64,000 bases of DNA, taken from contig DOEC01000035.1 of assembly GCA_003524085.1 (NCBI GenBank), forward strand, positions 7,796 through 71,795, read 5' to 3'. The stretch is from Bacillota bacterium (GTDB lineage Bacteria > Bacillota_I > Bacilli_A > RF39 > UBA660). Shown here piece by piece: positions 4,325-24,497 of this stretch. The first letter of the stretch is position 1. The number at the start of each line of letters is the position of its first letter. The notes under the pieces were generated by a model. That model was not told the origin of the DNA. It ran no database searches and saw only the letters and a list, made by a program, of their open reading frames with translations. The position numbers and the translations under genes are program-made.

Positions 4325-4412
4325 GGATATTGAACCTCCTTTCCTTTTCAACCAAGTTCCCCTGATTTACTTAAGGTCGGTACGCGCGCTGCACTTCCTG
4401 CTCCATATTAAC

Positions 4413-4441: not shown

Positions 4442-4581
4442 TACTAAAAACAAATAAATTTTCGCTACAATTTTTAAAATCTGCAATAATTGTGGATAAC
4501 TTAAAACTTATTAACAAAAATTCCTAAAACCAGTAGAAAAAAATAAGTTTTTGATGTAAAATCATATTAGGAGGTTTGATT

Positions 4582-5256: not shown

Positions 5257-5314
5257 CAAAAATTGGTAGATTAATAATTAACATTTAATAAATACTATAA
5301 CTAGGTGAATACAA

Positions 5315-5713
5315 ATGAAAAAAATATTATTAACTCTATCAATTTTTTTAATGATTTTTATATCTCCAAACACCAGCGCAATAGAAGATTATAGTCTATA
5401 TAAAGAAAGTGTATATGTTTTAAAATATAACACTCTAAACTCTAAAGACTTGCCTTCTTTATTAAAAGACACTAATAGCCTAGTCTTAGAAATAGACGCA
5501 AACATCAAAGGAAAAACCTACACTTATAGAATACTTTCAAGTGACATAAGTGTAACTACTGAAAAACTAATAAAGAAAATAACTAAAGACATAACAGATA
5601 AAGAAACCATAACCGATATAGAAATCAACGGAGTAAAAATAACAAAACTCACTCTAAAAATCACTAATGAAGACTATAACACACTAAAAGAAAGAAGTAA
5701 AATCTATGAGTGA
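5315..5713 (+). CDS. secreted protein with signal peptide, unknown function
   Basis: MKKILLTLSIFLMIFISPNTSA signal-like N-terminus. Confidence 0.6.
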   Translation: MKKILLTLSIFLMIFISPNTSAIEDYSLYKESVYVLKYNTLNSKDLPSLLKDTNSLVLEIDANIKGKTYTYRILSSDISVTTEKLIKKITKDITDKETITDIEINGVKITKLTLKITNEDYNTLKERSKIYE

Positions 5714-6830: not shown

Positions 6831-6873
6831 TGAAATTTATGATATTATATTAATATAATAAAGAGGGATAAAG

Positions 6874-9270
6874 ATGGGTAGTTTAAAAGATTATTTTAAA
6901 ATTGATACAACACTAGGTTTTGCAAGACCTGACTGCATATTTAAAGGAGAGAAATACAGAATTACTATACTTTCTGATGTTTTATTGCGCCTAGAATATA
7001 ACGAAAACGGAATATTTAACGATTATCCTACACTATTTGCTATAAATAGAAAATTCACTAAAATGCCAACTTTCACTAAAAAAGAAGACGAAAAATTCCT
7101 AAATATTACAAACGACTACTTTATCTTAGAATACAATAAAGAAAAACCTTTTGCTGCATCCAAACTAATTCCAGACTCAAACCTTAGAATAAGTATTCAA
7201 GGTACAGATAAAATTTGGTATGTAAACCATCCTGAAGTAAAAAATTTAAAAGGCGCAACTTATAGCTTTGACACAAAAAACTTCACTTTAGAAAGAGGAC
7301 TATATAGTCTAGACGGAGTAGCAAGTTTTAACGACTCATGTCGTCCTGTATTTGTAAGTGACGGTACAGTTAAAAAGAATCCAAGTGATGGAATGGATAT
7401 ATACTTATTTGTATACAAAAGTAACTTTGATGAAGCACTAAATAGCTATTACGAACTAACTGGAAAACCAAGCTTAATACCAAGATATGCTTTAGGTGTA
7501 TGGTGGAACAAAAACGAAGATTATACATCTGACGACATCACTTCCTTAATAAACAATTTTAAAAAATCAGACATTCCAATAAGCACCCTTTTACTAGGTA
7601 ACAAATGGAATAAAACAGAAGGAAAATTGTCCCCTACATTTAACTATAACGATAAGAAATTCCCTAACTTTATAGAAACCGCAAATAATATACACAGAAA
7701 TGGCATATATTTTGGTTTAACAGTAAATCCACAAAACGGAATAACACCACTAGATCCAGGATACCAAAATTTAAAAACAAAGCTAAACGAAACAAAAGAA
7801 ATAATACCAATAAATGTTTATAACAACACTATATTAGAGTTTTTGTATACTTATTTAATAGAATATTTAAATCAAAGAGGAGTAGACTTTATAAACTTTG
7901 ACATAAAAGCAGAAGATAAAATAGCACAGTTTATGCTAATGCATTACACTTACATGAACTTCAAAAAAGACGCATCACGTCGTGGACTAATTATGAGTAG
8001 AAACCCAGGCATAGCATCACATAGATACCCAATTATGTATTCAGGAGTTACTGAAGTTTCATGGAAAACTTTAAAATACTTACCATTTTATAACATTAGT
8101 TCTTCGAATATAGGCCTTACTTGGTGGTCACATGATATAGGTGGATACGAAAATGGAACAGAAGATGCTGAGTTATATACTAGATACGTTCAACTAGGTG
8201 TATATAGTCCAATATTTAGGTTTTCTTCAAAAGAAGGAAGATACTATAAACGTGAACCATGGAAATGGGATGTAAAAACACAAGGTATCGTAAAAGACTA
8301 CACTAGAGTAAGACATAGACTAATTCCTTATATATATAGCGAGGCATATAAATATTCAAAACATGGAATAAACTTAATCAAACCATTATACTATGACTAC
8401 AAAGAAACAATAGATGAGCCACTATACAAAAATGAATACCATTTTGGTAGTGAACTATTTGTCTGCCCAATAACTGAACCAAAAGACAAAGTCATGAATA
8501 GGGTACTTCATAGAATATACCTTCCTGAAGGAACATGGTATGACTTTAAAACTGGTAAAAAATTCCCAGGCGGAAAAAGATACGTTACATTCTATAAAGA
8601 CGAAGACTACCCAGTATACGCTAAAAGCGGCTCTATCATACCTTTAGCAATCATTGACGAAAACAACATAAATAGTGTTTTACCACCTAAAAAAATGGAA
8701 ATTCAAGTCTTCCCTGGTGTAAGCAATAACATTAATTTATACGAAGACGATGGAATTAGTAGTTTATACAAAGAAGGATACTATATTCTTACAAATATAG
8801 ACTATAACTATAGAAAAAATAACTACACATTGATTTTAAGGCCAATTGAAGGTAAAACAGGTATAGTTCCAGACAAACGTGACTACAAAATAAAATTTAG
8901 AAACACAAAAAGACCAGAATACGTAAAAGTAAACGTTGGAAGATTTGAAGTAGAGTTTACTACTAGATGTGACGAAAGTGACTTCATTATAGAAATACCT
9001 AACGTACCAACAAACCAACAACTAACAGTAAACTGTGGTGGAGAAGCAATAGAAATAGATGCAGTTAGACTTATAAACGAAGACATAGACGAAATAATAA
9101 GTGATTTACAAATAGAAACAAACTTAAAAGAACAAGTAGCAAGCATTTTATTTAGTGATTTATCTATAAGAAAGAAAAGAATAGAGATAAGAAAAATGAA
9201 AAGAAAAGGCTTAAATAAACTTTTTATAAAAATGTTTATAAAACTACTTGAATATATTAGTGAGATATGA
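6874..9270 (+). CDS. glycoside hydrolase family 31 (alpha-glucosidase / alpha-xylosidase-like)
   Basis: GLTWWSHDIGGY motif as in YicI-type GH31; 798 aa; RBS AGAGGGA. Confidence 0.8.
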   Translation: MGSLKDYFKIDTTLGFARPDCIFKGEKYRITILSDVLLRLEYNENGIFNDYPTLFAINRKFTKMPTFTKKEDEKFLNITNDYFILEYNKEKPFAASKLIPDSNLRISIQGTDKIWYVNHPEVKNLKGATYSFDTKNFTLERGLYSLDGVASFNDSCRPVFVSDGTVKKNPSDGMDIYLFVYKSNFDEALNSYYELTGKPSLIPRYALGVWWNKNEDYTSDDITSLINNFKKSDIPISTLLLGNKWNKTEGKLSPTFNYNDKKFPNFIETANNIHRNGIYFGLTVNPQNGITPLDPGYQNLKTKLNETKEIIPINVYNNTILEFLYTYLIEYLNQRGVDFINFDIKAEDKIAQFMLMHYTYMNFKKDASRRGLIMSRNPGIASHRYPIMYSGVTEVSWKTLKYLPFYNISSSNIGLTWWSHDIGGYENGTEDAELYTRYVQLGVYSPIFRFSSKEGRYYKREPWKWDVKTQGIVKDYTRVRHRLIPYIYSEAYKYSKHGINLIKPLYYDYKETIDEPLYKNEYHFGSELFVCPITEPKDKVMNRVLHRIYLPEGTWYDFKTGKKFPGGKRYVTFYKDEDYPVYAKSGSIIPLAIIDENNINSVLPPKKMEIQVFPGVSNNINLYEDDGISSLYKEGYYILTNIDYNYRKNNYTLILRPIEGKTGIVPDKRDYKIKFRNTKRPEYVKVNVGRFEVEFTTRCDESDFIIEIPNVPTNQQLTVNCGGEAIEIDAVRLINEDIDEIISDLQIETNLKEQVASILFSDLSIRKKRIEIRKMKRKGLNKLFIKMFIKLLEYISEI

Positions 9271-9334
9271 TATACTTATAGTGGGTTATCGATTAATTTA
9301 TATTTTTTGATACCCACCTAATATATTTTTATAC

Positions 9335-9368
9335 GACATCCTTAACCCAGGATGTCACTTTTTTTATA
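9335..9368 (+). terminator. rho-independent terminator after GH31 gene
   Basis: GACATCC-TTAACCCA-GGATGTC + ACTTTTTTT. Confidence 0.6.
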
Positions 9369-9377
9369 ATGAACTAC

Positions 9378-9406
9378 TTGAAATTAAATAAATATACTGC
9401 TATAAT
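9378..9406 (+). promoter_or_regulatory. sigma-A promoter TTGAAA-17nt-TATAAT for leuS leader
   Basis: read directly from the sequence. Confidence 0.5.
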
Positions 9407-9414
9407 ACTAATAT

Positions 9415-9620
9415 AAGTTTTGTTGACAAAAGAGTAGTAATTAACATTTCTTTTATAGAGAGTTAGTGTTAGGTGCAAACTAACAAAGAAAGTTAATGAA
9501 CTTGCTTTTAGAAAAACTTCGCTAGTAAGCGTTATAACTATAAAGATGCATAATACTTTATGAATTAAGGTGGTACCGCTGTAGTTTGCAGTCCTTAAGT
9601 CATAAAGTTTATTTTTTTGA
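9415..9620 (+). promoter_or_regulatory. T-box riboswitch leader (Leu-tRNA sensing) upstream of leuS operon
   Basis: Stem I AGAGA element near 9466; conserved T-box sequence AATTAAGGTGGTACCGC at ~9563-9580; T-run terminator 9607-9617; CUU/CUC codons in the specifier region. Confidence 0.6.
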
Positions 9621-9630
9621 AAGGAGTACT

Positions 9631-9999
9631 ATGAAAGAAAAAATAATAATTAACACGATATACTTTTTAGCCTCATACCTGATTATATTCTTAGTCTATG
9701 TTTTCATTGTCAATAGAAAAAAGAAAACATACGCTGATGCTAAAAAAATGACAGACGTAACATACCTGACTACAAAGTTTAAAATAGATAAAAGAAAAAC
9801 AGACTATAATACCCTGAAGTGGTACATAAACTTTATAAACCCACTCATAATATCAACAACATTTGTAGTAATATCAAATATAAAATCATTCACTATGAGC
9901 TTACTTGTAGGTTTCATAGTAATGTTAGTATTAATTTATTCATTATATGAAATAATAGGAAGAATATTAAAAAAGAAGGAGTTTGATAAAAATGTATAA
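9631..9999 (+). CDS. small membrane protein (3 TM) between T-box leader and leuS
   Basis: RBS GAAAGGAG before ATG 9631 (M16 of ORF 9586); overlaps leuS start. Confidence 0.5.
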   Translation: MKEKIIINTIYFLASYLIIFLVYVFIVNRKKKTYADAKKMTDVTYLTTKFKIDKRKTDYNTLKWYINFINPLIISTTFVVISNIKSFTMSLLVGFIVMLVLIYSLYEIIGRILKKKEFDKNV

Positions 10000-12403
10000 T
10001 TTTGAAGAAATAGAAAAGAAATGGCAAAGTTTTTGGGAAAAAAACCATACTTTTGAAGTGAAAAATGAAGGGGCTAATCCATACTACATACTAGTAGAGT
10101 TCCCATACCCTAGTGGAGAAGGACTTCACGTTGGACACGTAAGAAGCTATACTGCACATGATATAATGGCAAGAATGAAAAGAATGCAAGGATATAACGT
10201 ATTATTTCCAATGGGTTTTGACGCTTTCGGTGCCCCAGCTGAACAATACGCAATTAAAACACACACACATCCAAAAGATGTAACAAACAAAGCTATCTCT
10301 CATTTTAGAAGTCAAATGAAAAGAATAGGTTTTAGTTTTGACTGGAGTAGAGAATTCTCGACAACTGACCCAGAATACTATAAATGGACACAATGGCAAT
10401 TCATACAATTTTTTAAACACAACATGGCCTATAAAGACACAATACCTGTTAACTGGTGTCCAAACTGTAAAATGGTACTTTCAAATGAAGACGCAGCAGG
10501 TGGAGTTTGCGAAAGATGTGGAAGTGCTGTAGAACAAAAAGAAAAAAGTCAGTGGATGCTAAAAATGAGCGAGTACGCAGAAGACTTACTTACTGGACTA
10601 AACGATACTCACTTTGCTGAAAAAGTAAAACTAGGTCAAATAAACTGGATAGGTAAATCTACTGGTGTAGAAGTAGACATAAATATTGTAGGCGGAGGAA
10701 AATTTAGCATATTCACAACTTGTATAGAAACAATATATGGAATAACTTTCTTTGTAATCGCACCAGATGGTAAACTTATTAAAGAACTTATGCCTAGAAT
10801 AGAAAACAAAAATGAAGTAAATGAATACATCAAAGAAACACTAAAAAAATCAAATATGGATAGAACAGAACTAAATAAAGGAAAATCAGGTGTAGAACTA
10901 AAAGGCTTAAAAGCTATAAATCCAGTTAATGGAAAAGAAGTTCCAATATTTATTGGAGACTTTGTATTAGGTTCATATGGTACAGGTGCTGTAATGGCTG
11001 TTCCTAGTCACGATCAAAGAGACTTCGAGTATTCTAAAGTTCACAATATTCCAATGATCCAAGTAATAGACGGTAGAGAAACCACTTCTTCTGCATTTGA
11101 AAAACTTGACTACTTAGGTAAGGGCTGTAAACTTATAAACTCAGAAGAATTTACTGGCTTAACTGTAGAAGAAGCAAAAGAAAAAATCACTAAAAAACTA
11201 GAAAACATGGGTATCGCAAGACGTGTAAACAACTACAAAATGAGAGACTGGATTTTCAGTAGACAAAGATTCTGGGGTGAACCAATTCCAATGATAAACT
11301 GTCCTAAATGCGGATGGGTTCCAATGAAAGAAGAAGATTTACCACTTTTACTTCCAGATGTAGCAGAATATGAGCCTACTGATACAGGAGAAAGTCCACT
11401 TGCAAAAATAACTGACTGGGTTAACACTACATGTCCAGTGTGTGGCACTCCTGCAAAAAGAGAAACAGACACAATGCCACAATGGGCTGGATCTTCTTGG
11501 TATTTCCTAAGATTCATGGATGCACATAACAATAAAGAATTTGCAAGCATGGAAGCAATGAAATACTGGGGAAAAGTAAATTGGTACAACGGTGGAATGG
11601 AACACACAGCAAGACACTTACTTTATGCAAGATTCTGGGTACAAATGCTATACAATTTTGGTCTTGTTCCAAATAAAGAAATGATAGATGTAAGAGTTTC
11701 CCATGGTATGATACTAGGTTCAAACCATGAAAAAATGTCCAAGAGTAAAGGTAACGTAATAAACCCTGATACAGTAGTAAATGAAGTAGGCGCAGACGCT
11801 TTAAGAGTTTATGAAATGTTTATAGGTGACTATCAACAAGATGTATCTTGGTCAACAGACTCGCTAAGAGGTTGCAAACGTTTCTTAGATAGAATATACA
11901 AGTTAGGAGAAAAACTAAGTGATAAAGAAGGTTACACTAACGAAACACTAGTACATCAAACAATTAAAAAAGTAACAGATGACTTAAGTAATCTTAAATT
12001 TAACACAGCAGTATCTCAACTTATGATACTAACAAACGACTTAGATAAAAATGAAACAATAACAAAGAATGACTACAAAATACTTTTAACTTTACTAAAC
12101 CCAATTGCACCACACATTACTGAAGAACTAAACGAAAAATATGCTTTAGGAAAACCAATCTGTGAAAGCTCTTGGCCTACATTCGATGAAGAAAAAACAA
12201 AAGAAAGCACAGTAAATATTGCAGTACAAGTAAATGGTAAATTAAGAGGTACTATGAACGTACCTTCAAAAACAGACAAAGAAGAAACTTTAAGACTTGC
12301 AAAAGAATTAGACAATGTTAAAAAACACTTAGAAAATATTACTATCCTAAAAGAAATAGTAGTACCTAATAAAATAGTAAATATAGTAACAAAACAGAGC
12401 TAA
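9992..12403 (+). CDS. leuS: leucyl-tRNA synthetase
   Basis: HIGH-type motif PYPSGEGLHVGHVRSY; KMSKS; ~800 aa class I LeuRS; start at M4 of ORF 9983 with AAGGAG RBS. Confidence 0.95.
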   Translation: MYNFEEIEKKWQSFWEKNHTFEVKNEGANPYYILVEFPYPSGEGLHVGHVRSYTAHDIMARMKRMQGYNVLFPMGFDAFGAPAEQYAIKTHTHPKDVTNKAISHFRSQMKRIGFSFDWSREFSTTDPEYYKWTQWQFIQFFKHNMAYKDTIPVNWCPNCKMVLSNEDAAGGVCERCGSAVEQKEKSQWMLKMSEYAEDLLTGLNDTHFAEKVKLGQINWIGKSTGVEVDINIVGGGKFSIFTTCIETIYGITFFVIAPDGKLIKELMPRIENKNEVNEYIKETLKKSNMDRTELNKGKSGVELKGLKAINPVNGKEVPIFIGDFVLGSYGTGAVMAVPSHDQRDFEYSKVHNIPMIQVIDGRETTSSAFEKLDYLGKGCKLINSEEFTGLTVEEAKEKITKKLENMGIARRVNNYKMRDWIFSRQRFWGEPIPMINCPKCGWVPMKEEDLPLLLPDVAEYEPTDTGESPLAKITDWVNTTCPVCGTPAKRETDTMPQWAGSSWYFLRFMDAHNNKEFASMEAMKYWGKVNWYNGGMEHTARHLLYARFWVQMLYNFGLVPNKEMIDVRVSHGMILGSNHEKMSKSKGNVINPDTVVNEVGADALRVYEMFIGDYQQDVSWSTDSLRGCKRFLDRIYKLGEKLSDKEGYTNETLVHQTIKKVTDDLSNLKFNTAVSQLMILTNDLDKNETITKNDYKILLTLLNPIAPHITEELNEKYALGKPICESSWPTFDEEKTKESTVNIAVQVNGKLRGTMNVPSKTDKEETLRLAKELDNVKKHLENITILKEIVVPNKIVNIVTKQS

Positions 12404-12426
12404 ATAATTAACTCTGTTTTACTTTT
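12392..12426. terminator. bidirectional hairpin between leuS and convergent RHH gene
   Basis: AAACAGAG-loop-CTCTGTTT, T-rich flank. Confidence 0.45.
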
Positions 12427-12599
12427 GCATTTTCTTCCATATTAGAAAGTGCGTAACTAATACACTGCGATATAAACTCATTACGACTAATCTTAGCTTT
12501 ATAAGACTCTCTATCTATAGTTTCTAATAATTTAGTATCAATTCTCATGCTTATAACAACTTTATCATTACTTCCCTTAGAAGGCACAAATTTTTTCAT
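12408..12599 (-). CDS. ribbon-helix-helix (CopG/Arc-like) DNA-binding protein
   Basis: MKKFVPSKG...VVISMRIDTKLLETIDRES...SRNEFI has an RHH beta-strand/helix pattern; RBS GAGGTG 6 nt before ATG at 12599. Confidence 0.5.
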   Translation of the reverse strand: MKKFVPSKGSNDKVVISMRIDTKLLETIDRESYKAKISRNEFISQCISYALSNMEENAKVKQS

Positions 12600-12673
12600 T
12601 CTATACACCTCTATAACAATTATATTAATAAACCATAATTAAATATATATTCACTTTTGAATACAAAATGTAT

Positions 12674-12702
12674 TTACTTTTTGAATGTATTAAGTTATAA
12701 TT
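12674..12702 (+). promoter_or_regulatory. promoter TTTACT-17nt-TATAAT
   Basis: read directly from the sequence. Confidence 0.4.
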
Positions 12703-12734
12703 TATGTAGATAATATAAGAGAGAGGTAAGATGT

Positions 12735-14222
12735 ATGAAAAACAAACAATTAACATTAGTTGTAGTAAGCCTTTTAGTAGTAGTACTAAGTGTATCACTA
12801 GCATGGTTTACAACTCAAATAATAGGAAAGGGAAAAGATGTAAGTGTAACAAGTGCTAACTTACAAATAGTATTTACAGATAGTGATGGAGCTTTAACAG
12901 AAACTGATATAGAACCAGGCTGGCAAAAAACTAAAACATTTACTATTAAAAATGATACTAAGACAGAATACAAATATAATATAGTAATAAAAGACTTATT
13001 AAATACTTTTGTAACAGAAGGATACTTACAATACAAGATAACTAGTACAAACGATGGATACAATATGACTGAGTTTAAAGATATACCAAAGTCAAGTACA
13101 CCTAAAGATACAATACTAGCTTATAGTGTAGTAATACCTAATGGAGTAACACAAAGTTACACTATTGAATTTAAGTATGCAAACGATGAAAGTGTAGACC
13201 AAAGTGTAGACATGAATAAAAAACTAAGTGGAACACTATTTATAACTGAGGGAACAGAACAACCTACGCTTTTAATTCAATTGCTTGCTGACAAATCAAC
13301 AGTATTAACAAGAACAGACTTTAGTACAGTTTTAACAGATAATAATACAAACACATTATATACTTCTACTGAAGACAGTAAAACAGTATATTATTTTGCA
13401 GGGAATGCAACAGATAACTGGGTAAAGTTTGGAAAGAATGCAAGTAATCAAGACTTATACTGGAGAATAATAAGAACAAACTCAGATGGAAGTGTAAGAT
13501 TACTATATCACGGTACAAGTACAACAGCAACAGACGCATATATAGGAACATCACAATTTAATAGTAGTTATAATAATATAGCATATGTAAGTTATATGTA
13601 TGGAAATTTAGGAAGTGTTGCAAATGCTAGAACTAACCAAACAAACTCTAGTACAATAAAAACAACAATAGATAACTGGTATACAAGCAACTTAGAAGCA
13701 AAAGGTTATACAAAATACTTAAGTACAACAGCAGTATATTGTAATGATAGAACATATACAGTATCTGGAAATGACACATACTTTGGAGCATACACAAGAC
13801 TAAAAACAAATAAAACACCAACATACGACTGTGCAACAACAGAAGACAAATTCACAGCAGATAGTAGTACTGGAAACGGGAAACTAACATATCCAATAGC
13901 ATTAATGACAGCAGACGAAGTAAGTTTTGCAGGTGGACTATACGGTACAAATGCACCAACATGGTATTATAATAGTGCAAACGGAAGCTCTACAGGTAAA
14001 ACTACTTGGTGGTTGTTGTCTCCTAACTATTGGGGTGGCAGCTACACTTACGTGTTCAGCGTGTACGGTTCCTCCGATCCTGGCAACTTGGGCGGCAACG
14101 ACATCCACGACACTTACGGGGTGCGTCCAGCCCTATCATTAAAATCATGTGTGAAATACTCTAGTGGAGATGGCTCAGCAAGTGACCCATACACAATAAA
14201 AGAAACTACAAGTGGATGCTAA
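12735..14222 (+). CDS. secreted Ser/Thr/Asn-rich protein; N-terminal region weakly TasA/camelysin-like; contains a compositionally foreign GC-rich C-terminal segment
   Basis: signal/anchor MKNKQLTLVVVSLLVVVLSVSLAWF; RBS GAGAGGT; 495 aa. Confidence 0.6.
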   Translation: MKNKQLTLVVVSLLVVVLSVSLAWFTTQIIGKGKDVSVTSANLQIVFTDSDGALTETDIEPGWQKTKTFTIKNDTKTEYKYNIVIKDLLNTFVTEGYLQYKITSTNDGYNMTEFKDIPKSSTPKDTILAYSVVIPNGVTQSYTIEFKYANDESVDQSVDMNKKLSGTLFITEGTEQPTLLIQLLADKSTVLTRTDFSTVLTDNNTNTLYTSTEDSKTVYYFAGNATDNWVKFGKNASNQDLYWRIIRTNSDGSVRLLYHGTSTTATDAYIGTSQFNSSYNNIAYVSYMYGNLGSVANARTNQTNSSTIKTTIDNWYTSNLEAKGYTKYLSTTAVYCNDRTYTVSGNDTYFGAYTRLKTNKTPTYDCATTEDKFTADSSTGNGKLTYPIALMTADEVSFAGGLYGTNAPTWYYNSANGSSTGKTTWWLLSPNYWGGSYTYVFSVYGSSDPGNLGGNDIHDTYGVRPALSLKSCVKYSSGDGSASDPYTIKETTSGC

Positions 14223-14435: not shown

Positions 14436-17400
14436 ATGTTCGAAAAAGAAAATGATTATGTAACTAATAGAAAAATGTATCTTGATAATAAAGATTACAT
14501 TCTTAAAAGATTTGCTTACTCTGATATCATACGTGGTGAATTAATAACTAGCTATAGTATAGAAGTTACTGATGAACATGACTATCCTGATAAAGGTTAC
14601 ACGGACTACTGTTTTGAAACTAATTCATACTATTATGATGTTGGTAAATATAGACAAGTAATAAGAAAAAATGATGCTGGAGAAATATTATCCTACTCTT
14701 GTAACTGTAGTAACTTTAGAGATACTAATTCATGTGTTCACTTAGTAGGATGTTTTCATAACTATGCATTTTTAATTTTCTATGCTAAACCAGATCCATT
14801 AAAAATATCAAACAATATTTTAGACATACTTTCAAAATCAAATAAACCTGTAGTTAAAAAAGAAGTATTCTTATCAGTTGACATACTATCCTCTTCAATA
14901 GACTTTTATTATGATGTTAAAATAAAAGTAGGTATTAATAAGATGTACTCATACAATAACAAACAAAACCAATTCTTACAGGCGTCAAATAGAAAAGATG
15001 ACGAGTTCACTTTTGGTAAAGATTTTACTTTTGATTTTAACAGCAATTACTTTAGTGAAAAAGCTACAAAAGTATTAAAATACATAAATAGATTTCATCC
15101 TGACTTAAATAAAAACAATTTTGATGATAAAGAAATAAATAATTTTCTAGATTTATTAAAAGAACAAGATTACCCTTTCACATATAATAATCATAACATA
15201 ACTAAAATACTAGAAGAATTTCCTCTTGAAAGTACAGTAGAAGAAATGGATCAAGATAACTACATAGTTAACTTTGATTTAAAAGACTACAAACTAATTA
15301 GTTATAACTATGCATACAATAATTCTAATATTTACTATTTATCTAACAAAGACATATCACTATTATTTTTATTATATAAACAAAATATGTCTAGTTTAAT
15401 CATACCCAAAAATAGATTAAAAGACTTCTCTAGTGGTGTACTTCCAATAATAAAAAAACATGTAGAAGTAAATGAAAACCTAAAAGATAAAATACAAATA
15501 ATTAATGAACCAGATGTATCTTTATACTTTGACTTAAATAAAGATAATGTTATATGTAATATAAAACTAAAATATAATGAAGAAATAGATTACTTTGATA
15601 ACAAAGCTAATGTACTAAGAGATGTGGAATTTGAAACCAATTTAATTAGTTACTTACAAACTTTTGGTTTTATCATAAATAATAAAAAGATTATAATGAA
15701 TGATTTAGATAAAATAGTATATTTAATAGATGAAGGACTAAACTTAATAAGTAAAAAATATCCTGTATACACTACTGAAAACTTTAAAAAACTAGGTTTA
15801 AAGAAAACTAAAGTATCTAGTACATTCTCGATAGGAAAAGATAACATATTAAGTTATGATTTTAATTTAGATGGAATAAGTAATGATGATATAGTAAATA
15901 TATTTAAAAGCATTAAAGAAAAAAAGAAATACTATAAGTTAAGTAATAATCAAATAGTAGATCTAGAAGACAGTGATTTAAATGAATTAATGAATCTAAC
16001 TGAAGAACTAGATATTACTGACGAAGACATAATAAATGCTAAAGGTTCAGTTATGAAATACAGGGCTATTTATTTAGACAGTATTAAAGATAGCAAGTAT
16101 TCTATTATTAAAACAGACAACTTATTTAAAGAGTTTATTAATAACTTTCATCAATATAAAGATGCTAATTTAACTCTTACAGCTGATGAGTTAAAAACAC
16201 TCAGAGACTACCAAATAACCGGTGTAAAATGGCTTTATAACTTAGATAAATGTTCTTTTGGTGGAATACTAGCTGATGAAATGGGTCTTGGTAAAACAAT
16301 ACAACTAATCTACTACATAAAACAAATGTTAAAAGAAGATAATACTTACAAATTCCTAATAGTAGTACCAACTAGCTTACTTTATAACTGGGATAGAGAG
16401 TTTGAAAAATTTGCACCTGATATTCCAGTAAAAATAGTAAATGGTATAAAAACCAAAAGACAAGACTTAATAGAAAATACAAACAAAAATGTCTACATTA
16501 CAACCTATGGTCTATTAAGAGAAGACTTAGAGTACTATGAAAAAATGCACTATCATGCTGTTATATTAGATGAAGCTCAAAACATAAAAAATCCACTAGC
16601 TGGCACAACAAAAGCATGTAAAAGCATGAAAGCAGATGTTAAGTTTGCATTAACAGGAACTCCTATAGAAAACTCAGCTGTTGAATTATGGAGTATATTT
16701 GACTATATCATGCCAGGATACTTATCTAAATATGATAAATTCACTAGTAAATACAAAGTAAAAGAATTTGATGAAGACACAAACAAACTACTTGATAGTT
16801 TATCTAAACAAATAAGTCCATTTATATTAAGAAGAAAAAAGAAAGACGTTATAAAAGAACTTCCTGAAAAAATAGAAACAAATATATTTATAGAGTTAGG
16901 TGATGAACAAAAGAAAATCTATGTAGCAGAACTAAACAAAGTAAAAGAAGCTATTGAAGAAGCCCTAAATGATGGTGGAATGTCTAAAGTTAGATTTATG
17001 ATACTTCCCCTTCTTACGAAACTAAGGCAAATTTGTATAGATCCTAAAATAGTATATAGTGATTATACTAGTGGGTCTAATAAAATAGATAGATTCTTAA
17101 GTGTAATAGAAGAAGTAACAAATAATGGCCATAAAGTACTAGTGTTCACTTCATTTAGAACAGCACTTAACTTAGTAAAAGATAAGCTTGATAGTATTGG
17201 TATAAAGTCATACCAAATAGATGGGTCAGTATCTAGTAAAGAAAGACAAACTAGAGTAGATAACTTTAATAATAATGATGACGTTAAAGTATTCTTAATA
17301 ATGCTAAAAAGTGGTGGAACTGGACTTAACTTAGCTTCTGCTGATATAGTTATTCACCTAGATTTATGGTGGAATCCACAAGCTGAAAACCAAGCAACAG

Positions 17401-17612
17401 ACCGTGCACATAGAATTGGACAAAAAAACACTGTTGAAGTAATAAAATTAGTTTCAAAAGGGACAATTGAAGAAAAAGTACTTGATTTACAAGAAAAGAA
17501 AAAAGAACTAAGTAATAGACTAATAGACTCAAATAACATGGATCAAAACATCATCAGTGAACTAACAGAAAAAGACATCAAAAACTTACTTGCTTTTGAA
17601 AACAAAGACTAA
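14436..17612 (+). CDS. SNF2/SWI2-family helicase with N-terminal SWIM zinc finger
   Basis: SWIM CNCSNFRDTNSCVHLVGCFH; SNF2 motifs LRDYQITGVKWL, ADEMGLGKT, DEAQNIKN; helicase C motifs GGTGLNLASADIV and TDRAHRIGQ. Confidence 0.9.
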   Translation: MFEKENDYVTNRKMYLDNKDYILKRFAYSDIIRGELITSYSIEVTDEHDYPDKGYTDYCFETNSYYYDVGKYRQVIRKNDAGEILSYSCNCSNFRDTNSCVHLVGCFHNYAFLIFYAKPDPLKISNNILDILSKSNKPVVKKEVFLSVDILSSSIDFYYDVKIKVGINKMYSYNNKQNQFLQASNRKDDEFTFGKDFTFDFNSNYFSEKATKVLKYINRFHPDLNKNNFDDKEINNFLDLLKEQDYPFTYNNHNITKILEEFPLESTVEEMDQDNYIVNFDLKDYKLISYNYAYNNSNIYYLSNKDISLLFLLYKQNMSSLIIPKNRLKDFSSGVLPIIKKHVEVNENLKDKIQIINEPDVSLYFDLNKDNVICNIKLKYNEEIDYFDNKANVLRDVEFETNLISYLQTFGFIINNKKIIMNDLDKIVYLIDEGLNLISKKYPVYTTENFKKLGLKKTKVSSTFSIGKDNILSYDFNLDGISNDDIVNIFKSIKEKKKYYKLSNNQIVDLEDSDLNELMNLTEELDITDEDIINAKGSVMKYRAIYLDSIKDSKYSIIKTDNLFKEFINNFHQYKDANLTLTADELKTLRDYQITGVKWLYNLDKCSFGGILADEMGLGKTIQLIYYIKQMLKEDNTYKFLIVVPTSLLYNWDREFEKFAPDIPVKIVNGIKTKRQDLIENTNKNVYITTYGLLREDLEYYEKMHYHAVILDEAQNIKNPLAGTTKACKSMKADVKFALTGTPIENSAVELWSIFDYIMPGYLSKYDKFTSKYKVKEFDEDTNKLLDSLSKQISPFILRRKKKDVIKELPEKIETNIFIELGDEQKKIYVAELNKVKEAIEEALNDGGMSKVRFMILPLLTKLRQICIDPKIVYSDYTSGSNKIDRFLSVIEEVTNNGHKVLVFTSFRTALNLVKDKLDSIGIKSYQIDGSVSSKERQTRVDNFNNNDDVKVFLIMLKSGGTGLNLASADIVIHLDLWWNPQAENQATDRAHRIGQKNTVEVIKLVSKGTIEEKVLDLQEKKKELSNRLIDSNNMDQNIISELTEKDIKNLLAFENKD

Positions 17613-17640
17613 ACTACGCAGAGATGCGTAGTTTTTATTT
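17613..17640 (+). terminator. rho-independent terminator ACTACGCA-GAGA-TGCGTAGT + TTTTTATTT
   Basis: read directly from the sequence. Confidence 0.7.
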
Positions 17641-17879
17641 AAATTTAACTAAATTAGTAAATATTTCACCATTGAAATAATTTATTATCTATGGTAGAAT
17701 AAGTAAAAAAATGATAATGAAAGGAAAAATAAATGAGTGAAAAAGAAATATTAGAGTAAATTAGTTTTATTGAGAGAAAAGGATAATCAACAATTTTTAG
17801 AAATAACAAAAGAAGAACAACAAGTTTTAAGTAGAGATGAAAAAGTAAAAATATCTCGGTATTAACTGAAAGACTAAAC

Positions 17880-18308
17880 TTGATGGATTATATATATGAT
17901 AAACTAATAACGTATACAACTAATGTGTTTAAATATTATGGTGGTATTGGTAAAAAAATACTTAAAAATTATGAAACTCAAACAAAAGATATAATTGAAA
18001 AAGGCGAAAATAAGATTATAGCAGCAACTGGATCTTACATAGGAGAGGGGTTTGATGACTCAAAACTTGATGTGTTATTTCTAACCATGCCTATATCTGA
18101 TCAAACGAGAGTTACACAGTATGCTGGAAGATTACATAGAAGAGATGATAACAAAAAAGAGATTTTAATTTATGATTATGTAGACGACAACTTTGAAAAA
18201 ACTAGAAATATGTTTTTTAAAAGGAAAAAGACATATGAAAAATTAGGATACGAAATATTGAATGAAGAGGAGCAAGTTAGACATATCATAAACATAAAAG
18301 TAAGATAA
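17880..18308 (+). pseudogene. C-terminal helicase-domain fragment of an SF2 (DEAD/DEAH, res-subunit-like) helicase; upstream part degraded
   Basis: motifs ATGSYIGEGFD, DVLFLTMP, QYAGRLHR (helicase motifs V/VI) in a 142-aa ORF; 240 bp upstream contains only short stop-interrupted fragments. Confidence 0.5.
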
Positions 18309-18398
18309 ATTGTCACAACTAGGAAGTTGTTACTATTCTCTTTCTAAGTGACTATTGATAATTTTTTTGATAAAATATCTTTAGGTGATGTGAAATAT

Positions 18399-19307
18399 AT
18401 GAAATGTTTATTATTAGGTAATGGTCTTAACATAGCTAATCATAATGATTATTTAATGATAGATAATGTTAGAACAAGATTCTTATCTATCTTAAAATCA
18501 AAATATAAGCTATTTGAGAAATGTTTATACATAGATAGTTTAAACTATGAAGATTTAAAAGATAGTATTTTAAAAGATAATAATGGAATTGAACAATTAT
18601 CCGGAAACTTGTTTGATTACTTTTACAACTTATTAAAAATAAATAATAAATTTTGTTGGAATGATTGTTTTCGATTAATTGAACTTATCGCTTCTATTTC
18701 AATCGAATCCTTATTCATTGTTGATGGAAAATATAAAAAACCAATAATTTCGATTGATTACGAGAATAAAATAAAAAAATATGATAAAGTTTTTACGCTT
18801 AATTACGTTGAAGATTGGGATAAAGAAAATAAATGCATTTATTTACATGGTAACATTAATAATTACTTATCTAACTATAGAGGACAAAATATTATTTCAA
18901 ATATTTTAAAATATTCATTACATTTGGAAGCAATCCCTACAAATTATTTAGAATTAGATTTTAGTGACATTATATTTATTCCGGATAATAAAATTGTTGA
19001 TAAACATAGTTATGTGGGTGAAGGATTATTTTGTGGTAAGTGTGGATTACCTGTTTATCCTTCAGATGACCTTTTTCTTGATAGTGGTAAAGGTGATATA
19101 TATGAAAAACTCAACCATGTTGAATATATAGACATTTTCGGAATGTCTCCATATGGTGATAAATCTCTAATAGATAAAATATCGTATATTAAAAACGTTA
19201 CTATTTATGTTCATAATATGAATAGTGACGAAATAAAAGAATGGAAAAAATATTTGTCAAATGCAAAATTTAAAGATTCAAAAGAATTTATAACTGCAAA
19301 TAATTAA
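18399..19307 (+). CDS. hypothetical protein, possibly AbiH-like abortive-infection family
   Basis: N-terminus MKCLLLGNGLNIANHNDY resembles the AbiH signature (hh-GNG-F/L-D/N-hA); RBS AGGTGATG 8 nt before ATG 18399. Confidence 0.4.
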   Translation: MKCLLLGNGLNIANHNDYLMIDNVRTRFLSILKSKYKLFEKCLYIDSLNYEDLKDSILKDNNGIEQLSGNLFDYFYNLLKINNKFCWNDCFRLIELIASISIESLFIVDGKYKKPIISIDYENKIKKYDKVFTLNYVEDWDKENKCIYLHGNINNYLSNYRGQNIISNILKYSLHLEAIPTNYLELDFSDIIFIPDNKIVDKHSYVGEGLFCGKCGLPVYPSDDLFLDSGKGDIYEKLNHVEYIDIFGMSPYGDKSLIDKISYIKNVTIYVHNMNSDEIKEWKKYLSNAKFKDSKEFITANN

Positions 19308-19414
19308 AAACAGTGTTTTGTATTTGTATGAAAAATAATACTATAATACATAAAAAAGAAAATATTTCATTTATTAAAATGAAATGCACTAACTTTTTGA
19401 ACGGAGGAAATAAA

Positions 19415-21388
19415 ATGGATTTAATAAATATAATAGATGATTATTTAAAAAATAAATTAATTAACTATGCAATTTTAATTAAAGGAGAATGGGGAACAGG
19501 CAAAACATTTTTTGTTAAAAAAAATATAATTAAAAGATATAACAACGCATTATATATATCTTTATATGGTATTTCTTCTATAGACAAATTAAGTGAAAAA
19601 ATATATTTAGAAATAATAAAATCTAAGGCAACCACAAATTTTATAAGTAAGTTTTTTCGAAAATTGCATGAAAAAATACTTTTTAAAGTATTGTTCTTTA
19701 TACCTATTCTGATTTTTAAATTACTCAAATTCTTATATGAACTATTATTTAAACTAATTTGGATTGTTACATATAATTTAGTGTATTTAAAGTTTAATAT
19801 TAATATTTCATCACTAAATAAAAAAGATTTTTATGGAATCTTAAAACTATATGAAAAATTAGATAAATTTATTTTGGTAATAGATGATTTAGAAAGATGC
19901 AATATACCAATAGAGGAAATTATGGGATTTATTAATGATTTTGTTGAACACAATAATGTAAAATGTATATTAGTTGCTAATGAAAATGAAATTTATAAAA
20001 CTCAATCTGAAAACCTTGAATTAAAAATATTAACTGTTGCTAATGATAAAATAGAATTCTACGACAATGATAGACGTAGTAATAAAACAAATGAAAAGTT
20101 AAATAGTAATGATTTGAAAAATAGAATAGATTATTTGTACAATGCAAATAACAAATATAAAATAATTAAAGAAAAAGTTATTGGTAAAGAATTTGTATTT
20201 ATTCCAAAATTGGAAAATATATATGATAATCTCGCATTTAAATACAAAGACGAAGAACAATTCTATGATATATTGAATAATACAAAATTATCAGTTATTG
20301 ATACAATGAGTTTAAATAATTTTAATAATATTAGGACATTAGATTTTTATTTTGATAATTTTTATCATATATATAAATATATAAATAATTTTGTAAAAGA
20401 ATGCAGGATATCAGAACAATTCATTTATAGTAATATATGTAAAAGCATTATAAATGGATGCATTTGTATGAAAAAAGGATATGAATTACGATGCCTGCCA
20501 AGTGGTAAGAGATTTGATTATGTATCATATGATGAGAATAAAACTTCAGTATTTCAATCAGATATGTTTTTAAGTTTTGATTTTGTTAATGAATATCTAA
20601 TATATAATTACATAGAAAAAAGTAATATAGAAGAAACCTTAAAGTTATTCGCTAATTCAAATTGTGATAAATTATCAGAAGATGATCCATTTAATCTTTT
20701 AAATGAATATTGGTATTATTCATCTGATGAGATTAATAAAATTTTATGTGATATATATAACAATATTGATTCTAACAAGTATAATCCATCACTATATAGA
20801 CTAATAATAAAAAAAATATCATCTTTAGAGGCTATGGATTATAATGACCCAATTATAAATCGAATAATTGAAATAATAAGATTAAAAGTTTCATTGGAAG
20901 ATAATATTGAAATTGATGATTATGAATTATTTCCAAATGATTTAGCATCACATATTTATTCAAACCATATTCAACAGATTAATAATAATACTAAAAATAA
21001 TTTAAAAATTAAAAACAATAACATTTTTGACAAGATTTTTGAAAAAGACGATTGGGCAGTCGAATTACATAAATATGTTGAAAAATCAAAATCACAAATA
21101 CTAACAGAAAATAATTTTTTTTCGTTAATAGGTTATAAGAAAATAATAGAAAAATTACTTAATTTAAACATTAAAAATGTATATTATTTTAAGTATACAC
21201 TAGACCATATATATGGGGTTGTAAAATTAAAAGATTCTAATACTGCTGAATTAGATTGTTTAAAAAGATTTAAAAAAGAACTGAATAAACAATTAAAGAA
21301 TATGAATATAAAAGATCCTATGGTAAAATGTCCATTTAAAATACTTTTAGAAAAAATTGATAGTATGTTATCAGTATCAAAAGACTAA
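19415..21388 (+). CDS. KAP-family P-loop NTPase with TM helices inserted in the NTPase domain
   Basis: Walker A GEWGTGKTFF; Walker B/KAP signature LVIDDLERC; hydrophobic helices ILFKVLFFIPILIFKLL / LFKLIWIVTYNLVYL between A and B; RBS GGAGGA before ATG 19415. Confidence 0.85.
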   Translation: MDLINIIDDYLKNKLINYAILIKGEWGTGKTFFVKKNIIKRYNNALYISLYGISSIDKLSEKIYLEIIKSKATTNFISKFFRKLHEKILFKVLFFIPILIFKLLKFLYELLFKLIWIVTYNLVYLKFNINISSLNKKDFYGILKLYEKLDKFILVIDDLERCNIPIEEIMGFINDFVEHNNVKCILVANENEIYKTQSENLELKILTVANDKIEFYDNDRRSNKTNEKLNSNDLKNRIDYLYNANNKYKIIKEKVIGKEFVFIPKLENIYDNLAFKYKDEEQFYDILNNTKLSVIDTMSLNNFNNIRTLDFYFDNFYHIYKYINNFVKECRISEQFIYSNICKSIINGCICMKKGYELRCLPSGKRFDYVSYDENKTSVFQSDMFLSFDFVNEYLIYNYIEKSNIEETLKLFANSNCDKLSEDDPFNLLNEYWYYSSDEINKILCDIYNNIDSNKYNPSLYRLIIKKISSLEAMDYNDPIINRIIEIIRLKVSLEDNIEIDDYELFPNDLASHIYSNHIQQINNNTKNNLKIKNNNIFDKIFEKDDWAVELHKYVEKSKSQILTENNFFSLIGYKKIIEKLLNLNIKNVYYFKYTLDHIYGVVKLKDSNTAELDCLKRFKKELNKQLKNMNIKDPMVKCPFKILLEKIDSMLSVSKD

Positions 21389-21826
21389 TCATAGATTTTG
21401 TTAAATATATAAATAATAAAAATAACGGAAACTAATGTGGACAAAATTCTGCTTTTATATAAATGGTTTAACATAATTCTGTGCTTTATAATAAAAATAG
21501 CTATCAAATCAGTATGCTTATTTATAAATCTACTTATAATATTTCTATCTTCAATAGATGTTACATTTTTCACAAACAGTCCAATTTATCACAAATGCCA
21601 TCATATTTATTATATTCGGCTTAATTTGTTGCTTCAGAACAATTACACGTTGATTCTAAAAAAGTATATTTAACCTTATATTGTTTAAAAATAATTTTTT
21701 CAAATCTTAAATGCTTTATACTATTACTCCAACATATATTAAAACAGAATAGAATGACAATTACATAAAAGAGTAGAATGTACCCAAATTTTAAATTAGA
21801 TATTTAGAATAATACAATCTTATATC

Positions 21827-21855
21827 TTGTAAATCTTTAATTTCTAAGGTATAAT
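21827..21855 (+). promoter_or_regulatory. sigma-A promoter TTGTAA-17nt-TATAAT for the 21889-23294 operon
   Basis: read directly from the sequence; preceded by 500 bp of AT-rich non-coding DNA. Confidence 0.5.
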
Positions 21856-21888
21856 ATCGTACAAATAAAATTTAAGGAGTGATTAGTT

Positions 21889-22506
21889 TTGAGAAAAGAA
21901 ACCAAAAATATTGTAGATAATTATTATATGAAAGAAGAAAAAATGTTATTTTTAAAGTTTGCCGAAATAATTGATAATAATATTAAAGATATTGAAAAGC
22001 ATAAAATAATCTGGGAATACGATCAGAAACTTGGAGGATTGGGTGGCTATGCTGCACCACTAAATGTAATAATTAATCCCTTTAAAACTTATGGAGACTA
22101 CAGAAATGTATTTAGAAGCTTACAATATTCCAGAAATGGTATGTTTCTTCATGCTAGACCAAGATTTATCATAATTGATGCAGCACTTAGTTTAGAAACT
22201 TTAGTTAAACTCCTTTTATCAAAAAATATTTTTTTAAAATATTCAGCTAACAAAAAGGAATTAGGAAAAAACGTTGAAGAATTACACAACAGAAAAATTA
22301 TTGACGAAGATTTTTATAAAAGATTAAATATTTGGAAAAAAATATTAAATTATGCTAAGCATGATACAGATCCGGAGTGTGATTATACCTTTGATTACGA
22401 GGATGCAGTTATATTTTATTTTGAAACCAGAGTGCTAGGTAACAAAATATTAAAAATACTAAATCATTATACAAGTGGAAAATTTTATAAGATTAAAATA
22501 GATTAA
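21889..22506 (+). CDS. hypothetical 205-aa protein, first gene of TIR operon
   Basis: TTG start 9 nt after AAGGAG; no recognizable domain; an R-x5-H (RNGMFLH) motif is present, but assigning it to HEPN is speculative. Confidence 0.55.
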   Translation: MRKETKNIVDNYYMKEEKMLFLKFAEIIDNNIKDIEKHKIIWEYDQKLGGLGGYAAPLNVIINPFKTYGDYRNVFRSLQYSRNGMFLHARPRFIIIDAALSLETLVKLLLSKNIFLKYSANKKELGKNVEELHNRKIIDEDFYKRLNIWKKILNYAKHDTDPECDYTFDYEDAVIFYFETRVLGNKILKILNHYTSGKFYKIKID

Positions 22507-22532
22507 ATATTAATATGAAAAGGAGTCTAAAA

Positions 22533-23294
22533 ATGAAAGATAAATATTCTTATATGGGCAATTATGGTATTGTAAAAATAATAGGAGGTAAATTCAAAGG
22601 TAAATTTGGATATTACGACGATGATGACGTTGATTTTGATAATGTTAGTAAATCTGTAGTTTATTTCGGAGAAATGTTTGATAATTCGGTATATCACTAT
22701 ATCAAACATGAATATATTACAAACGATTTCACGATTGAAGATTTGAAAAAGAGACAAATGTTTCTTCAACACAAATTATGTAGTAAGATTTCTATTTCAA
22801 AAAGATTAGAATTATTAGAAGAGAAAAATTTGATTGAATCTGAAATTAACTTAAGAACTTTAAATTATATTAATTCAAACAAGTTAGAAAATAAAAAGGT
22901 ATTTCTATCACATTCTTCAATTGATAAAAATATTGTGACTTCCATTGCTTTGGATTTACAAGAACGTGGAGTTACAACTTGGCTAGATGCGTATGATATT
23001 TTACCAGGAGAATCAATAATGTCAAAAATTAACAAAGGTTTAGAAGAATGTAAATATGTACTATTATTTTTATCAAAAAATTCTGTGAATTCTAATTGGG
23101 TTACAAAGGAATGGGAAACAGTATTATGGGACGAGATTAATTCAGGAAAGGTAAAAGTTATTCCAGTTAAACTCGAAGAATGTGAGATACCCAAAATATT
23201 ACAAACAAAAAAATATATCGATTTTACTGAAGGTTATAATATAGGACTTTATGAAATTACAAAAACTATTAAAGCATATGAAAAAATACAATAA
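22533..23294 (+). CDS. TIR-domain protein (unknown ~125-aa N-terminal domain + C-terminal TIR)
   Basis: C-terminal KVFLSHSSIDKN...WLDAYDILPG...SKNSVNSNWVTKEWE is a canonical bacterial TIR with conserved Glu; RBS AGGAG 7 nt before ATG 22533. Confidence 0.85.
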   Translation: MKDKYSYMGNYGIVKIIGGKFKGKFGYYDDDDVDFDNVSKSVVYFGEMFDNSVYHYIKHEYITNDFTIEDLKKRQMFLQHKLCSKISISKRLELLEEKNLIESEINLRTLNYINSNKLENKKVFLSHSSIDKNIVTSIALDLQERGVTTWLDAYDILPGESIMSKINKGLEECKYVLLFLSKNSVNSNWVTKEWETVLWDEINSGKVKVIPVKLEECEIPKILQTKKYIDFTEGYNIGLYEITKTIKAYEKIQ

Positions 23295-23300
23295 TTAAAT

Positions 23301-23328
23301 AAGGTACCATTAATAAGACTGGTACCTT
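23301..23328. terminator. perfect 9-bp hairpin AAGGTACCA-loop-TGGTACCTT after TIR gene (bidirectional)
   Basis: read directly from the sequence. Confidence 0.55.
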
Positions 23329-23795
23329 AAAATAAAAGATTATTTTAGTATATTTTAAATGGCGATTTTCAATTTATCAATTATCTGGTTTAACTCACCT
23401 AAAGCAATGGCAAGTAGTACAACTCTAATTACCAACGGAATTACAATCGTTAATAAAAATATATAAAAAATTTTTGTTATCTTTCCAATTTCTAACCTTA
23501 TGTAATAAAGATTTTCTTCAATTGTGCTATCTTCAGCCTTCACTTGATTAATTTTGTCTTCTATTCTAGAATATTCCTGGTATCAATGCCACTAACATTA
23601 TAATTGATATTATACCTATTATTTCACCTAATCCTATATTTATACCTACTTTCTATTGTTAGTTTAACATAAAAAAGATTAGTTTTATTAATAAACTGAA
23701 ATCATTAACTCTAACTTTACAGAAAAACACTTTTTATAAAATTGACATCTATGTTTTCACATGCTACAATTAACATAGATAGCAGGTGAAGTAAA

Positions 23796-24497
23796 TTGAA
23801 AAAATTAAAAAGATTATTAATAATTATTATAGTAACTGCATTTTTATATTTCTATTACAATGAAGAGACCACTAATTTATTAAAAAAAATCTTTCCAGAT
23901 AGTTATTCAACTGAAGTAACTGAAGTAGGAGAGGACAAGGGTAGTTACATAATTATAAACAATAACGAGCCAGATTTTAACGATGAAGATAAGACTACAG
24001 ACACATTTGAAAAGTATAGTAAACTTGATTCTCTAGGACGTGCAGGCGTTGCCTATGCAAATATAAGTGTTGACTTAATGCCTACAACTGAAAGAGAAAG
24101 TATAGGTATGATTAAACCAACTGGCTGGCACACTATAAAATATGACATAGTACCAGGAAAATACTTATATAATCGTTGCCACTTAATTGGTTACCAACTA
24201 ACCGGGGAAAATAAAAATGAACTAAACTTAATAACTTGCACTAGACAAATGAATACAGTAGGAATGCTGGACTGGGAGAGTATGGTAGCAAACTATATCA
24301 AGGAAACAAACAACAACGTCCTTTATAGGGTAACTCCAAAATATGAAAGTGATAACTTACTTGCAAGTGGCGTTCAAATAGAAGCGTACTCTATCCAAGA
24401 TAACGGAAAAGGCATAAAGTTCAATATATTTGTTAAAAATATACAAGACGGAATAGAAATAGACTATAAAACTGGTGATAGTAAATTAAAAGAATAA
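23796..24497 (+). CDS. membrane-anchored DNA/RNA non-specific endonuclease (EndA/NucA-like)
   Basis: N-terminal TM; active-site region NRCHLIGYQLTGEN matches the (D/N)RGHLI..QL.G motif; promoter TTGACA-17-TACAAT upstream; TTG start. Confidence 0.75.
   Translation: MKKLKRLLIIIIVTAFLYFYYNEETTNLLKKIFPDSYSTEVTEVGEDKGSYIIINNNEPDFNDEDKTTDTFEKYSKLDSLGRAGVAYANISVDLMPTTERESIGMIKPTGWHTIKYDIVPGKYLYNRCHLIGYQLTGENKNELNLITCTRQMNTVGMLDWESMVANYIKETNNNVLYRVTPKYESDNLLASGVQIEAYSIQDNGKGIKFNIFVKNIQDGIEIDYKTGDSKLKE

Follow-up and report, generated by a model that had tools for sequence, protein, structure and literature searches.

Which of the genes downstream of leuS belong to a phage-defense island, where does such an island begin and end, and do its genes act as one system? 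These questions are raised by a 64,000-nt stretch of contig DOEC01000035.1 (GenBank assembly GCA_003524085.1, positions 7,796 to 71,795 of the forward strand; hereafter the window), which comes from an uncultured human-gut Bacillota species. A first-pass annotation had proposed a defense-type island at 14436-21388, comprising an SNF2/SWIM helicase, a helicase remnant, an AbiH-like gene and a gene for a KAP NTPase. Comparison with contigs of the same species bears out that the content downstream of the SNF2 gene varies between strains—Cas9, a Type I restriction-modification (R-M) system with UvrD, Fic, or the set present here—and moves the limits of the island: the variable segment runs from 17636 to ~23770, leaves the SNF2 gene outside, and takes in two further genes, coding for a 205-aa protein and a TIR-domain protein. 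We regard it as probable that this segment is a defense hotspot, lodged between the SNF2/SWIM helicase and a non-specific endonuclease and holding independent modules, among them X302, a 302-aa SIR2-fold protein, and the KAP NTPase.

A strain-variable slot with conserved flanks

The slot, its contents and its two flanking genes are as follows.

17636..~23770: strain-variable segment of ~6.1 kb, probable defense hotspot (blastn of the window against same-species contigs)
14436..17612, + strand: SNF2 ATPase of 1058 aa with a SWIM-type motif and an SNF2_assoc domain (Pfam); conserved left flank
17611..17634, + strand: terminator-like hairpin at the SNF2 stop codon (10-bp stem with 4 GC pairs, then a T run)
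17880..18308, + strand: DEAD/DEAH (type III res-like) helicase remnant, 142 aa, of which only motifs V and VI and the C-terminus remain
18399..19307, + strand: X302, standalone SIR2-fold protein of 302 aa, predicted NAD+-consuming effector
19308..19414, + strand: KAP leader containing a TATAAT box and a ribosome-binding site (GGAGG)
19415..21388, + strand: KAP-family P-loop NTPase of 657 aa, PDC-S49 candidate family
21889..22506, + strand: protein of 205 aa without a known domain (nothing significant in Pfam or PADLOC)
22515..23294, + strand: TIR-domain protein of 259 aa, or 253 aa from the second ATG (TIR_2 1.2e-30, PDC-S66 4.2e-21)
23796..24497, + strand: DNA/RNA non-specific endonuclease with an N-terminal hydrophobic segment (Endonuclea_NS_2 3.7e-26); conserved right flank

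The edges of the slot were mapped by locating flank proteins (a sigma factor, SNF2 and the product of a 122-aa gene before leuS) on same-species contigs and then comparing the DNA by blastn. Homology between strains with differing cargo stops at 17635, the base after the SNF2 terminator hairpin (breakpoints on contigs L064 and L066), and restarts at 23762-23780, just 5' of the endonuclease gene. The flanks are 97-99% identical among contigs that differ in cargo; SNF2 is 98-100% identical beside every alternative cargo whose left flank was sequenced (Cas9, Fic and others), and the endonuclease gene adjoins each alternative cargo whose right side was seen. The slot between these two flank genes occurs in at least five cargo variants, Cas9 and Type I R-M among them, and the alternatives to the set in the window include the following.

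L064, L065: Cas9
L066: Fic and a UvrD fragment
L067: the helicase fragment of the window, then DUF3368 and helix-turn-helix (HTH)-peptidase M78 genes
L045, L050: a UvrD helicase and Type I R-M, the latter accompanied by an integrase and two hsdS genes

At the island of the window, a search for a tRNA, an integrase or repeats at the boundaries turned up nothing beyond AT-rich noise, so exchange presumably proceeds by recombination in the flanks. The slot shares conserved flanks and mutually exclusive immune cargos between strains with defense-island hotspots bounded by core genes, and differs from such hotspots in general in having no integrase, tRNA or flanking repeats. To our knowledge, a hotspot between an SNF2_assoc helicase and an Endonuclea_NS_2 gene has not been described before. 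Genes identical to those of the window recur on many human-gut metagenome contigs.

One further contig of the same species, L062, carries FtsK/SpoIIIE and SUF genes after an 81%-identical KAP allele, without the 205-aa, TIR and endonuclease genes, an arrangement that is either another cargo variant, a rearrangement or an assembly chimera. No non-coding RNA was matched in Rfam at E<=0.1 across 12-26 kb, and a promoter scan is uninformative in DNA of 27% GC, with 102 promoters found versus 110 expected. The base composition of the window, ~27% GC, falls to ~21% over 19-22 kb. Two gaps of ~500 nt each inside the island, at 21389-21888 and 23295-23795, hold no convincing open reading frame (ORF) and no Rfam match.

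X302 and the KAP NTPase

X302 starts at the ATG at 18399, behind an AGGTGA ribosome-binding site, as originally read, and the N-termini of its homologs agree with this start. The protein has no match in Pfam, NCBIfam or PADLOC, and its sole match in PHROGs is to an uncharacterized family (0.0075); tblastn found no match to it in plasmid and phage collections. Its family numbers just 24 clusters among 5.8 billion proteins, and 201 clusters when a profile is searched against 1.84 billion representatives at 50% identity. Almost every full-length member is ~300 aa long, and X302 is therefore a standalone protein. Broken copies also occur, as pieces of 127 and 193 aa on contigs of 41,281 bp that are probably one and the same.

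In its predicted structure X302 has the SIR2-type Rossmann-like fold. Across an alignment of 67 family sequences, G7-N8-G9, N11, Y136, S250 and P251 are invariant, and N135, H150, G151, K202 and D254 are conserved in at least 90%. N135 and the H150-G151 pair come after strands 130-133 and 146-148, respectively, and the resulting order in KVFTLNYVEDWDKENKCIYLHGN—strand, Asn, strand, His-Gly—parallels the stretch of Sir2Tm containing N99, D101 and H116, which we take to be the catalytic residues of that enzyme (the comparison sequence was checked and is 100% identical to PDB 1yc5). Fold, motif order and conservation together point to N135 and H150 as putative catalytic residues. A helical insert, residues 21-106, is specific to the family.

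The N-terminal LLLGNGLNIA had been likened to the AbiH signature, but the profile searches do not sustain an assignment to AbiH. X302 is unmatched to the AbiH hidden Markov model (HMM) PF14253 at E<=10, none of the 24 family members matches PF14253 or any PADLOC AbiH model at E<=5, and 10 remote relatives neither match AbiH nor provide a bridge to it; identification as AbiH is thus ruled out by the protein itself, 23 relatives and 10 remote relatives. The resemblance is nonetheless real at the superfamily level, because AbiH has itself been reported to be sirtuin-like and placed among antiphage SIR2 proteins (PMC13064643; bioRxiv 10.1101/2024.09.18.613514). Weak matches to the PADLOC candidate PDC-S21 come from two or three family members (best 4.5e-5), and a single member matches an Argonaute-associated SIR2 model (0.018). 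AbiH of Lactococcus lactis is a standalone SIR2-like abortive-infection protein ('SIRim'), from which X302 is separate as a sequence family. In the other defense SIR2 NADases—ThsA (Thoeris), DSR1/DSR2, SIR2-HerA (Nezha), the SIR2-STAND protein Avs5 and the SIR2 proteins associated with prokaryotic Argonaute (pAgo)—the SIR2 domain is fused to or paired with SLOG, STAND, HerA or pAgo, whereas X302 is all SIR2 domain plus helical insert and has no conserved partner gene.

The genomic context of the family was scanned in one genome per GTDB species, which gave 33 X302 loci in other species, distributed over Lachnospiraceae, other Clostridia, metagenome-assembled genomes (MAGs) of Bacilli and one Methanosarcinales MAG; the best match reached just 53% identity, which means that the representative genome for the species in the window was not matched. 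Among 112 genes at most two positions from an X302 relative (30 loci in other genomes), HsdS is found 10 times, HsdM 8 times and HsdR 4 times, and about a third of the relatives in other genomes lie inside or beside Type I R-M operons, usually in the order hsdM-hsdS-X302-(small gene)-hsdR and, in several loci, with a gap of ~10-20 nt between hsdS and the X302 relative. Further neighbors are YhcG/PDC-S02, PDC-S15, AAA_21, serine recombinases, DpnII R-M and Type III R-M. Two metagenomic relatives lie, respectively, beside SocA/Panacea, ABC-ATPase and MazG-like genes (65% identity) and beside DpnII R-M on a mobilizable element (51% identity). This is the pattern of a defense gene hitch-hiking in R-M operons. 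The archaeal homolog (L027; JAUWPM010000004.1, 9045-9902, 30% identity) suggests inter-domain transfer or a binning error.

The KAP gene starts at the ATG at 19415 (657 aa) and not at 19313, as gene callers on related contigs and all homologs concur. It had been described as a KAP NTPase with transmembrane (TM) helices between Walker A and Walker B. The NTPase holds firmly: the protein scores 33.6 bits against PF07693 (cutoff 20) and has both Walker motifs, GEWGTGKT at 24-31 and ILVIDDLE at 153-160, and W26, G27, G29, K30, D158, E160 and R161 are invariant in 41 homologs. As for the putative TM helices, residues 86-126, between the two motifs, form a hydrophobic insert with one stretch above the hydropathy threshold. 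The C-terminal ~400 aa are all-alpha and without a recognized domain. The protein matches the PDC-S49 profiles PDLC05031 (5.6e-51), PDLC05029 (1.2e-37) and PDLC05030 (1.3e-29), as well as the full-length phage-protein family phrog_4740 (3e-38), and its homologs form 89 clusters, most of them full-length. Three close homologs each follow another gene at a distance of ~80-110 nt: HsdR (homolog of 78% identity), GmrSD accompanied by Fic (65%) and DUF6119 (56%). On one same-species contig, L002, the KAP protein is split into pieces of 347 and 306 aa.

Single-gene proteins combining a TM segment, a KAP NTPase and a region of unknown function protect Enterococcus faecalis from phages, three of them originating from human-gut metagenomes (PLoS Biol 2026, PMC13552941); protection by EF_KAP needs Walker B and the C-terminal region and is not abortive-infection-like (PMC13552941). 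The KAP protein of the window, which is a PADLOC candidate (PDC-S49), has in common with EF_KAP, the three gut-metagenome ORFs and PifA of the F plasmid a KAP domain with an internal hydrophobic or TM segment followed by a domainless region of 300-400 aa; like the tested proteins it is encoded by a single gene in a defense context of gut Firmicutes, the likeness being one of architecture. EF_KAP has an N-terminal TM helix, which the protein of the window lacks.

It had been suggested that X302 and KAP may form one unit. By analogy with SIR2-HerA or SIR2-STAND (Avs5), such a unit might be a two-gene system in which KAP would sense or regulate at the membrane and the SIR2 protein, as the effector, would deplete NAD+. 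The two genes are indeed neighbors on the same strand in the window, and a second, independent adjacency exists in opposite order in Roseburia sp. AM59-24XD (NZ_QUET01000031.1), where the end of a full-length PDC-S49 KAP gene (4.6e-48) lies 2 nt ahead of an X302 homolog of 34% identity. Co-occurrence was assessed by running the KAP profile A3 on the 33 other-species X302 loci (10 kb) and the X302 profile A5 on 80 metagenomic KAP loci (4-kb flanks), with a positive control in which all 39 known loci were recovered. The Roseburia locus is the only one of the 33 with a KAP gene, the remaining 32 having none within 10 kb, and X302 is found at none of the 80 KAP loci; likewise, none of three close KAP homolog contexts carries X302, and the two closest X302 relatives with context (65% and 51% identity) have no KAP gene.

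These counts speak against X302 and KAP as an operon or system despite the Roseburia adjacency, which is likely due to chance because both families insert beside R-M genes. The Roseburia genes are part of a defense cluster (1558-12999) on a conjugative element; the cluster holds Type III R-M (Res, Mod), DUF4062, an integrase fragment, KAP, the X302 homolog, DUF6017 and DUF3801. Two further features count against a joint system. The 107-nt spacer before KAP contains a promoter-like box and a ribosome-binding site, and this leader is conserved in the 78%-identical homolog (L074) although the upstream gene there is hsdR; judged from sequence, the leader appears to travel with the KAP gene. The alleles are also discordant in L062, where X302 is 99.7% identical but KAP only 81%, and the genes downstream differ. 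We conclude that X302 and KAP are independent modules, and consider a two-gene system or a facultative pairing unlikely.

A possible mode of action and the non-defense alternative

In the reading that we favor, a defense hotspot of independent modules, immune cargo would most likely be swapped between strains by homologous recombination in the flanks. The first module of the slot is the scar of an older helicase gene. The second, X302, is predicted to bind NAD+ via the GNG loop, N135 and H150 and would most likely deplete or transfer NAD+ upon phage infection, giving protection of the abortive-infection type; its helical insert is the obvious candidate for the infection sensor. Such protection has been demonstrated for ThsA, DSR and SIR2-HerA and suggested for AbiH. 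The third module would be a self-contained KAP NTPase with its own leader, anchored to the membrane by a putative hydrophobic hairpin within the ATPase domain, in which ATP hydrolysis would most likely drive the ~400-aa helical C-terminal region, as effector or sensor, in a membrane-associated switch like that of EF_KAP. The 205-aa gene and the TIR gene behind it would be a fourth module of further cargo.

Several observations weigh against this reading. Cargo of the window type is the most frequent variant and strongly conserved, and present-day selection for defense is only assumed; each of KAP, TIR and X302 has disrupted copies in some strains, which points to ongoing decay or a fitness cost. 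The link between X302 and SIR2 is drawn from a predicted structure: profile searches with alignments A1 and A5 against PDB sequences gave no relevant match to solved SIR2 structures, and hhalign of X302 against Sir2Tm aligned only the GNG with the GAG loop (G21-A-G23 of Sir2Tm), not significantly (probability 2%). Because these profile and hhalign links to SIR2 are not significant, N135 and H150 are proposed as catalytic residues only provisionally. The KAP insert contains several Lys, and only one 19-residue stretch (several overlapping scan positions, starts 86-100) passes the hydropathy threshold of 1.6, with Kyte-Doolittle values up to 2.2; a second, at 106-124, reaches ~1.4 by hand calculation, under the threshold, and the confidence of AlphaFold2 (AF2) over the insert is low (pLDDT 51-66). 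Finally, in the literature library searched there was no functional report on the candidate families PDC-S49, PDC-S21 and PDC-S66.

The segment might, then, be non-defense accessory or decaying DNA, with X302 a sirtuin-type deacylase or regulator and KAP a membrane signaling ATPase unrelated to phages. The helicase pseudogene within the slot, the frameshifted KAP, TIR and X302 genes of some strains, the absence of an X302 match to known defense HMMs and the NCBI record (HBP13502-HBP13513, proteins identical to those of the window), in which all genes discussed here except leuS are annotated as 'hypothetical protein', would suit such an explanation, but Cas9 and Type I R-M take the place of this cargo in other strains, many X302 relatives lie inside hsd operons, and X302 does not have the Zn-binding module of deacylating sirtuins. 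KAP, for its part, belongs to a defense-candidate family with relatives beside HsdR and GmrSD, and KAP proteins of like architecture have been validated as defenses (PMC13552941). We find the non-defense explanation improbable.

Under the defense reading, we propose tentatively, as a possibility that falls short of an expectation, that X302 is the founding member of a hitherto undescribed family: minimal, standalone anti-phage effectors with a SIR2 fold, located in Type I R-M operons and lacking a fused or dedicated sensor. The ~200 clusters of the family (at 50% identity) come mainly from gut Clostridia and Bacilli, with one archaeal MAG in addition. If such effectors exist, either the helical insert would sense infection directly or failure of the neighboring R-M system would trigger X302. 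Defense islands, SIR2 effectors, KAP NTPases and TIR proteins are all of known kinds, and the locus adds no new category; what is new is a small SIR2-fold family outside the model libraries searched, and the description of the hotspot in an uncultured gut species. Its habit of residing in hsd operons and defense hotspots makes X302 a good candidate for a new single-gene NAD+-targeting defense, and its addition to defense-finder databases would improve the annotation of gut Firmicutes. The swap locus, with Cas9, Type I R-M, Fic or SIR2-like + KAP + TIR at one site, would be useful for studies of defense turnover in the microbiome, and its KAP protein lends itself to tests of the class of KAP NTPase defenses that was validated recently.

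The SNF2 flank and the remaining genes

The 1058-aa SNF2 ORF with an N-terminal SWIM finger is confirmed as such. It matches SNF2_assoc (1e-59), SNF2-rel_dom (7e-71) and Helicase_C (3.5e-23) in Pfam, and it retains helicase motifs I, II, III and VI intact. A SWIM-type motif, CxCx9CxH, lies at residues 89-103; the finger is real as a motif, because the pattern arises in just 3 of 20000 composition-matched shuffles, although the Pfam SWIM model has no match to the protein. The best NCBIfam match, below cutoff, is NF053675, 'pilus expression-regulating Snf2' (residues 152-1053). Because the gene is nearly identical beside all cargos with a sequenced flank, has its own terminator and finds its best full-length match in a non-defense Snf2, it constitutes the conserved left flank and is not defense cargo, as it had first been listed. 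It is accordingly very unlikely that SNF2/SWIM is the core of a ZorD-, DpdE- or DrmD-type defense (Zorya, Dpd or DISARM) with the downstream genes as partners: its PADLOC matches are strong in E-value (DpdE 7e-125, ZorD 1e-113), but the ZorD, DpdE and DrmD matches (PADLOC, NCBIfam) are confined to the helicase core (residues ~460-1050), the scores are far under the cutoffs (ZorD 268 bits versus 1500, DpdE 76 versus 500), no ZorABC, Dpd or Drm partner genes are found in the neighborhood, and the full-length match, the SNF2_assoc domain, the conservation beside all cargos and the closing terminator all speak for a flank gene.

The decayed SF2 helicase at 17880-18308 was correctly recognized. Aligned by tblastn with the C-terminal ~125 aa of DEAD/DEAH or 'type III res subunit' helicases ~810 aa long (one of 813 aa), the 142-aa ORF shows 41-43% identity (E 5e-23), and it matches the DNA helicase family phrog_16 (3.7e-15). 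Only 267 nt separate it from SNF2, with in-frame stops there, and the same remnant lies beside a different cargo in L067.

At the other end of the slot, the 205-aa gene lies 8 nt upstream of the TIR gene, both within the variable segment. The 205-aa protein has 97 homolog clusters, and its homologs elsewhere (L081-L087) are located 7-21 nt behind Fic (beside GmrSD and a Gabija-like OLD/UvrD pair) or REase-ARP, not TIR, which speaks against a conserved pair with TIR; the protein may serve a variety of effectors as a portable partner or adaptor. On several contigs (L005/L054/L063) the TIR gene is frameshifted to 202 aa.

Two further genes precede SNF2.

9992-12403, + strand: leuS (TIGR00396 2.5e-278)
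12735-14222, + strand: secreted protein of 495 aa, DUF6273-like at the C-terminus

Between leuS and SNF2 lies another indel slot (12698-14217), smaller than the first; it holds the 495-aa gene, which in some strains is absent and in others gives way to a 1075-aa Flg_new protein or to an HTH gene and two large ORFs. On contig L056, T2SSF and prepilin-peptidase genes precede this second slot, and the adjoining SNF2 has the pilus-expression-regulating type as its best NCBIfam match.

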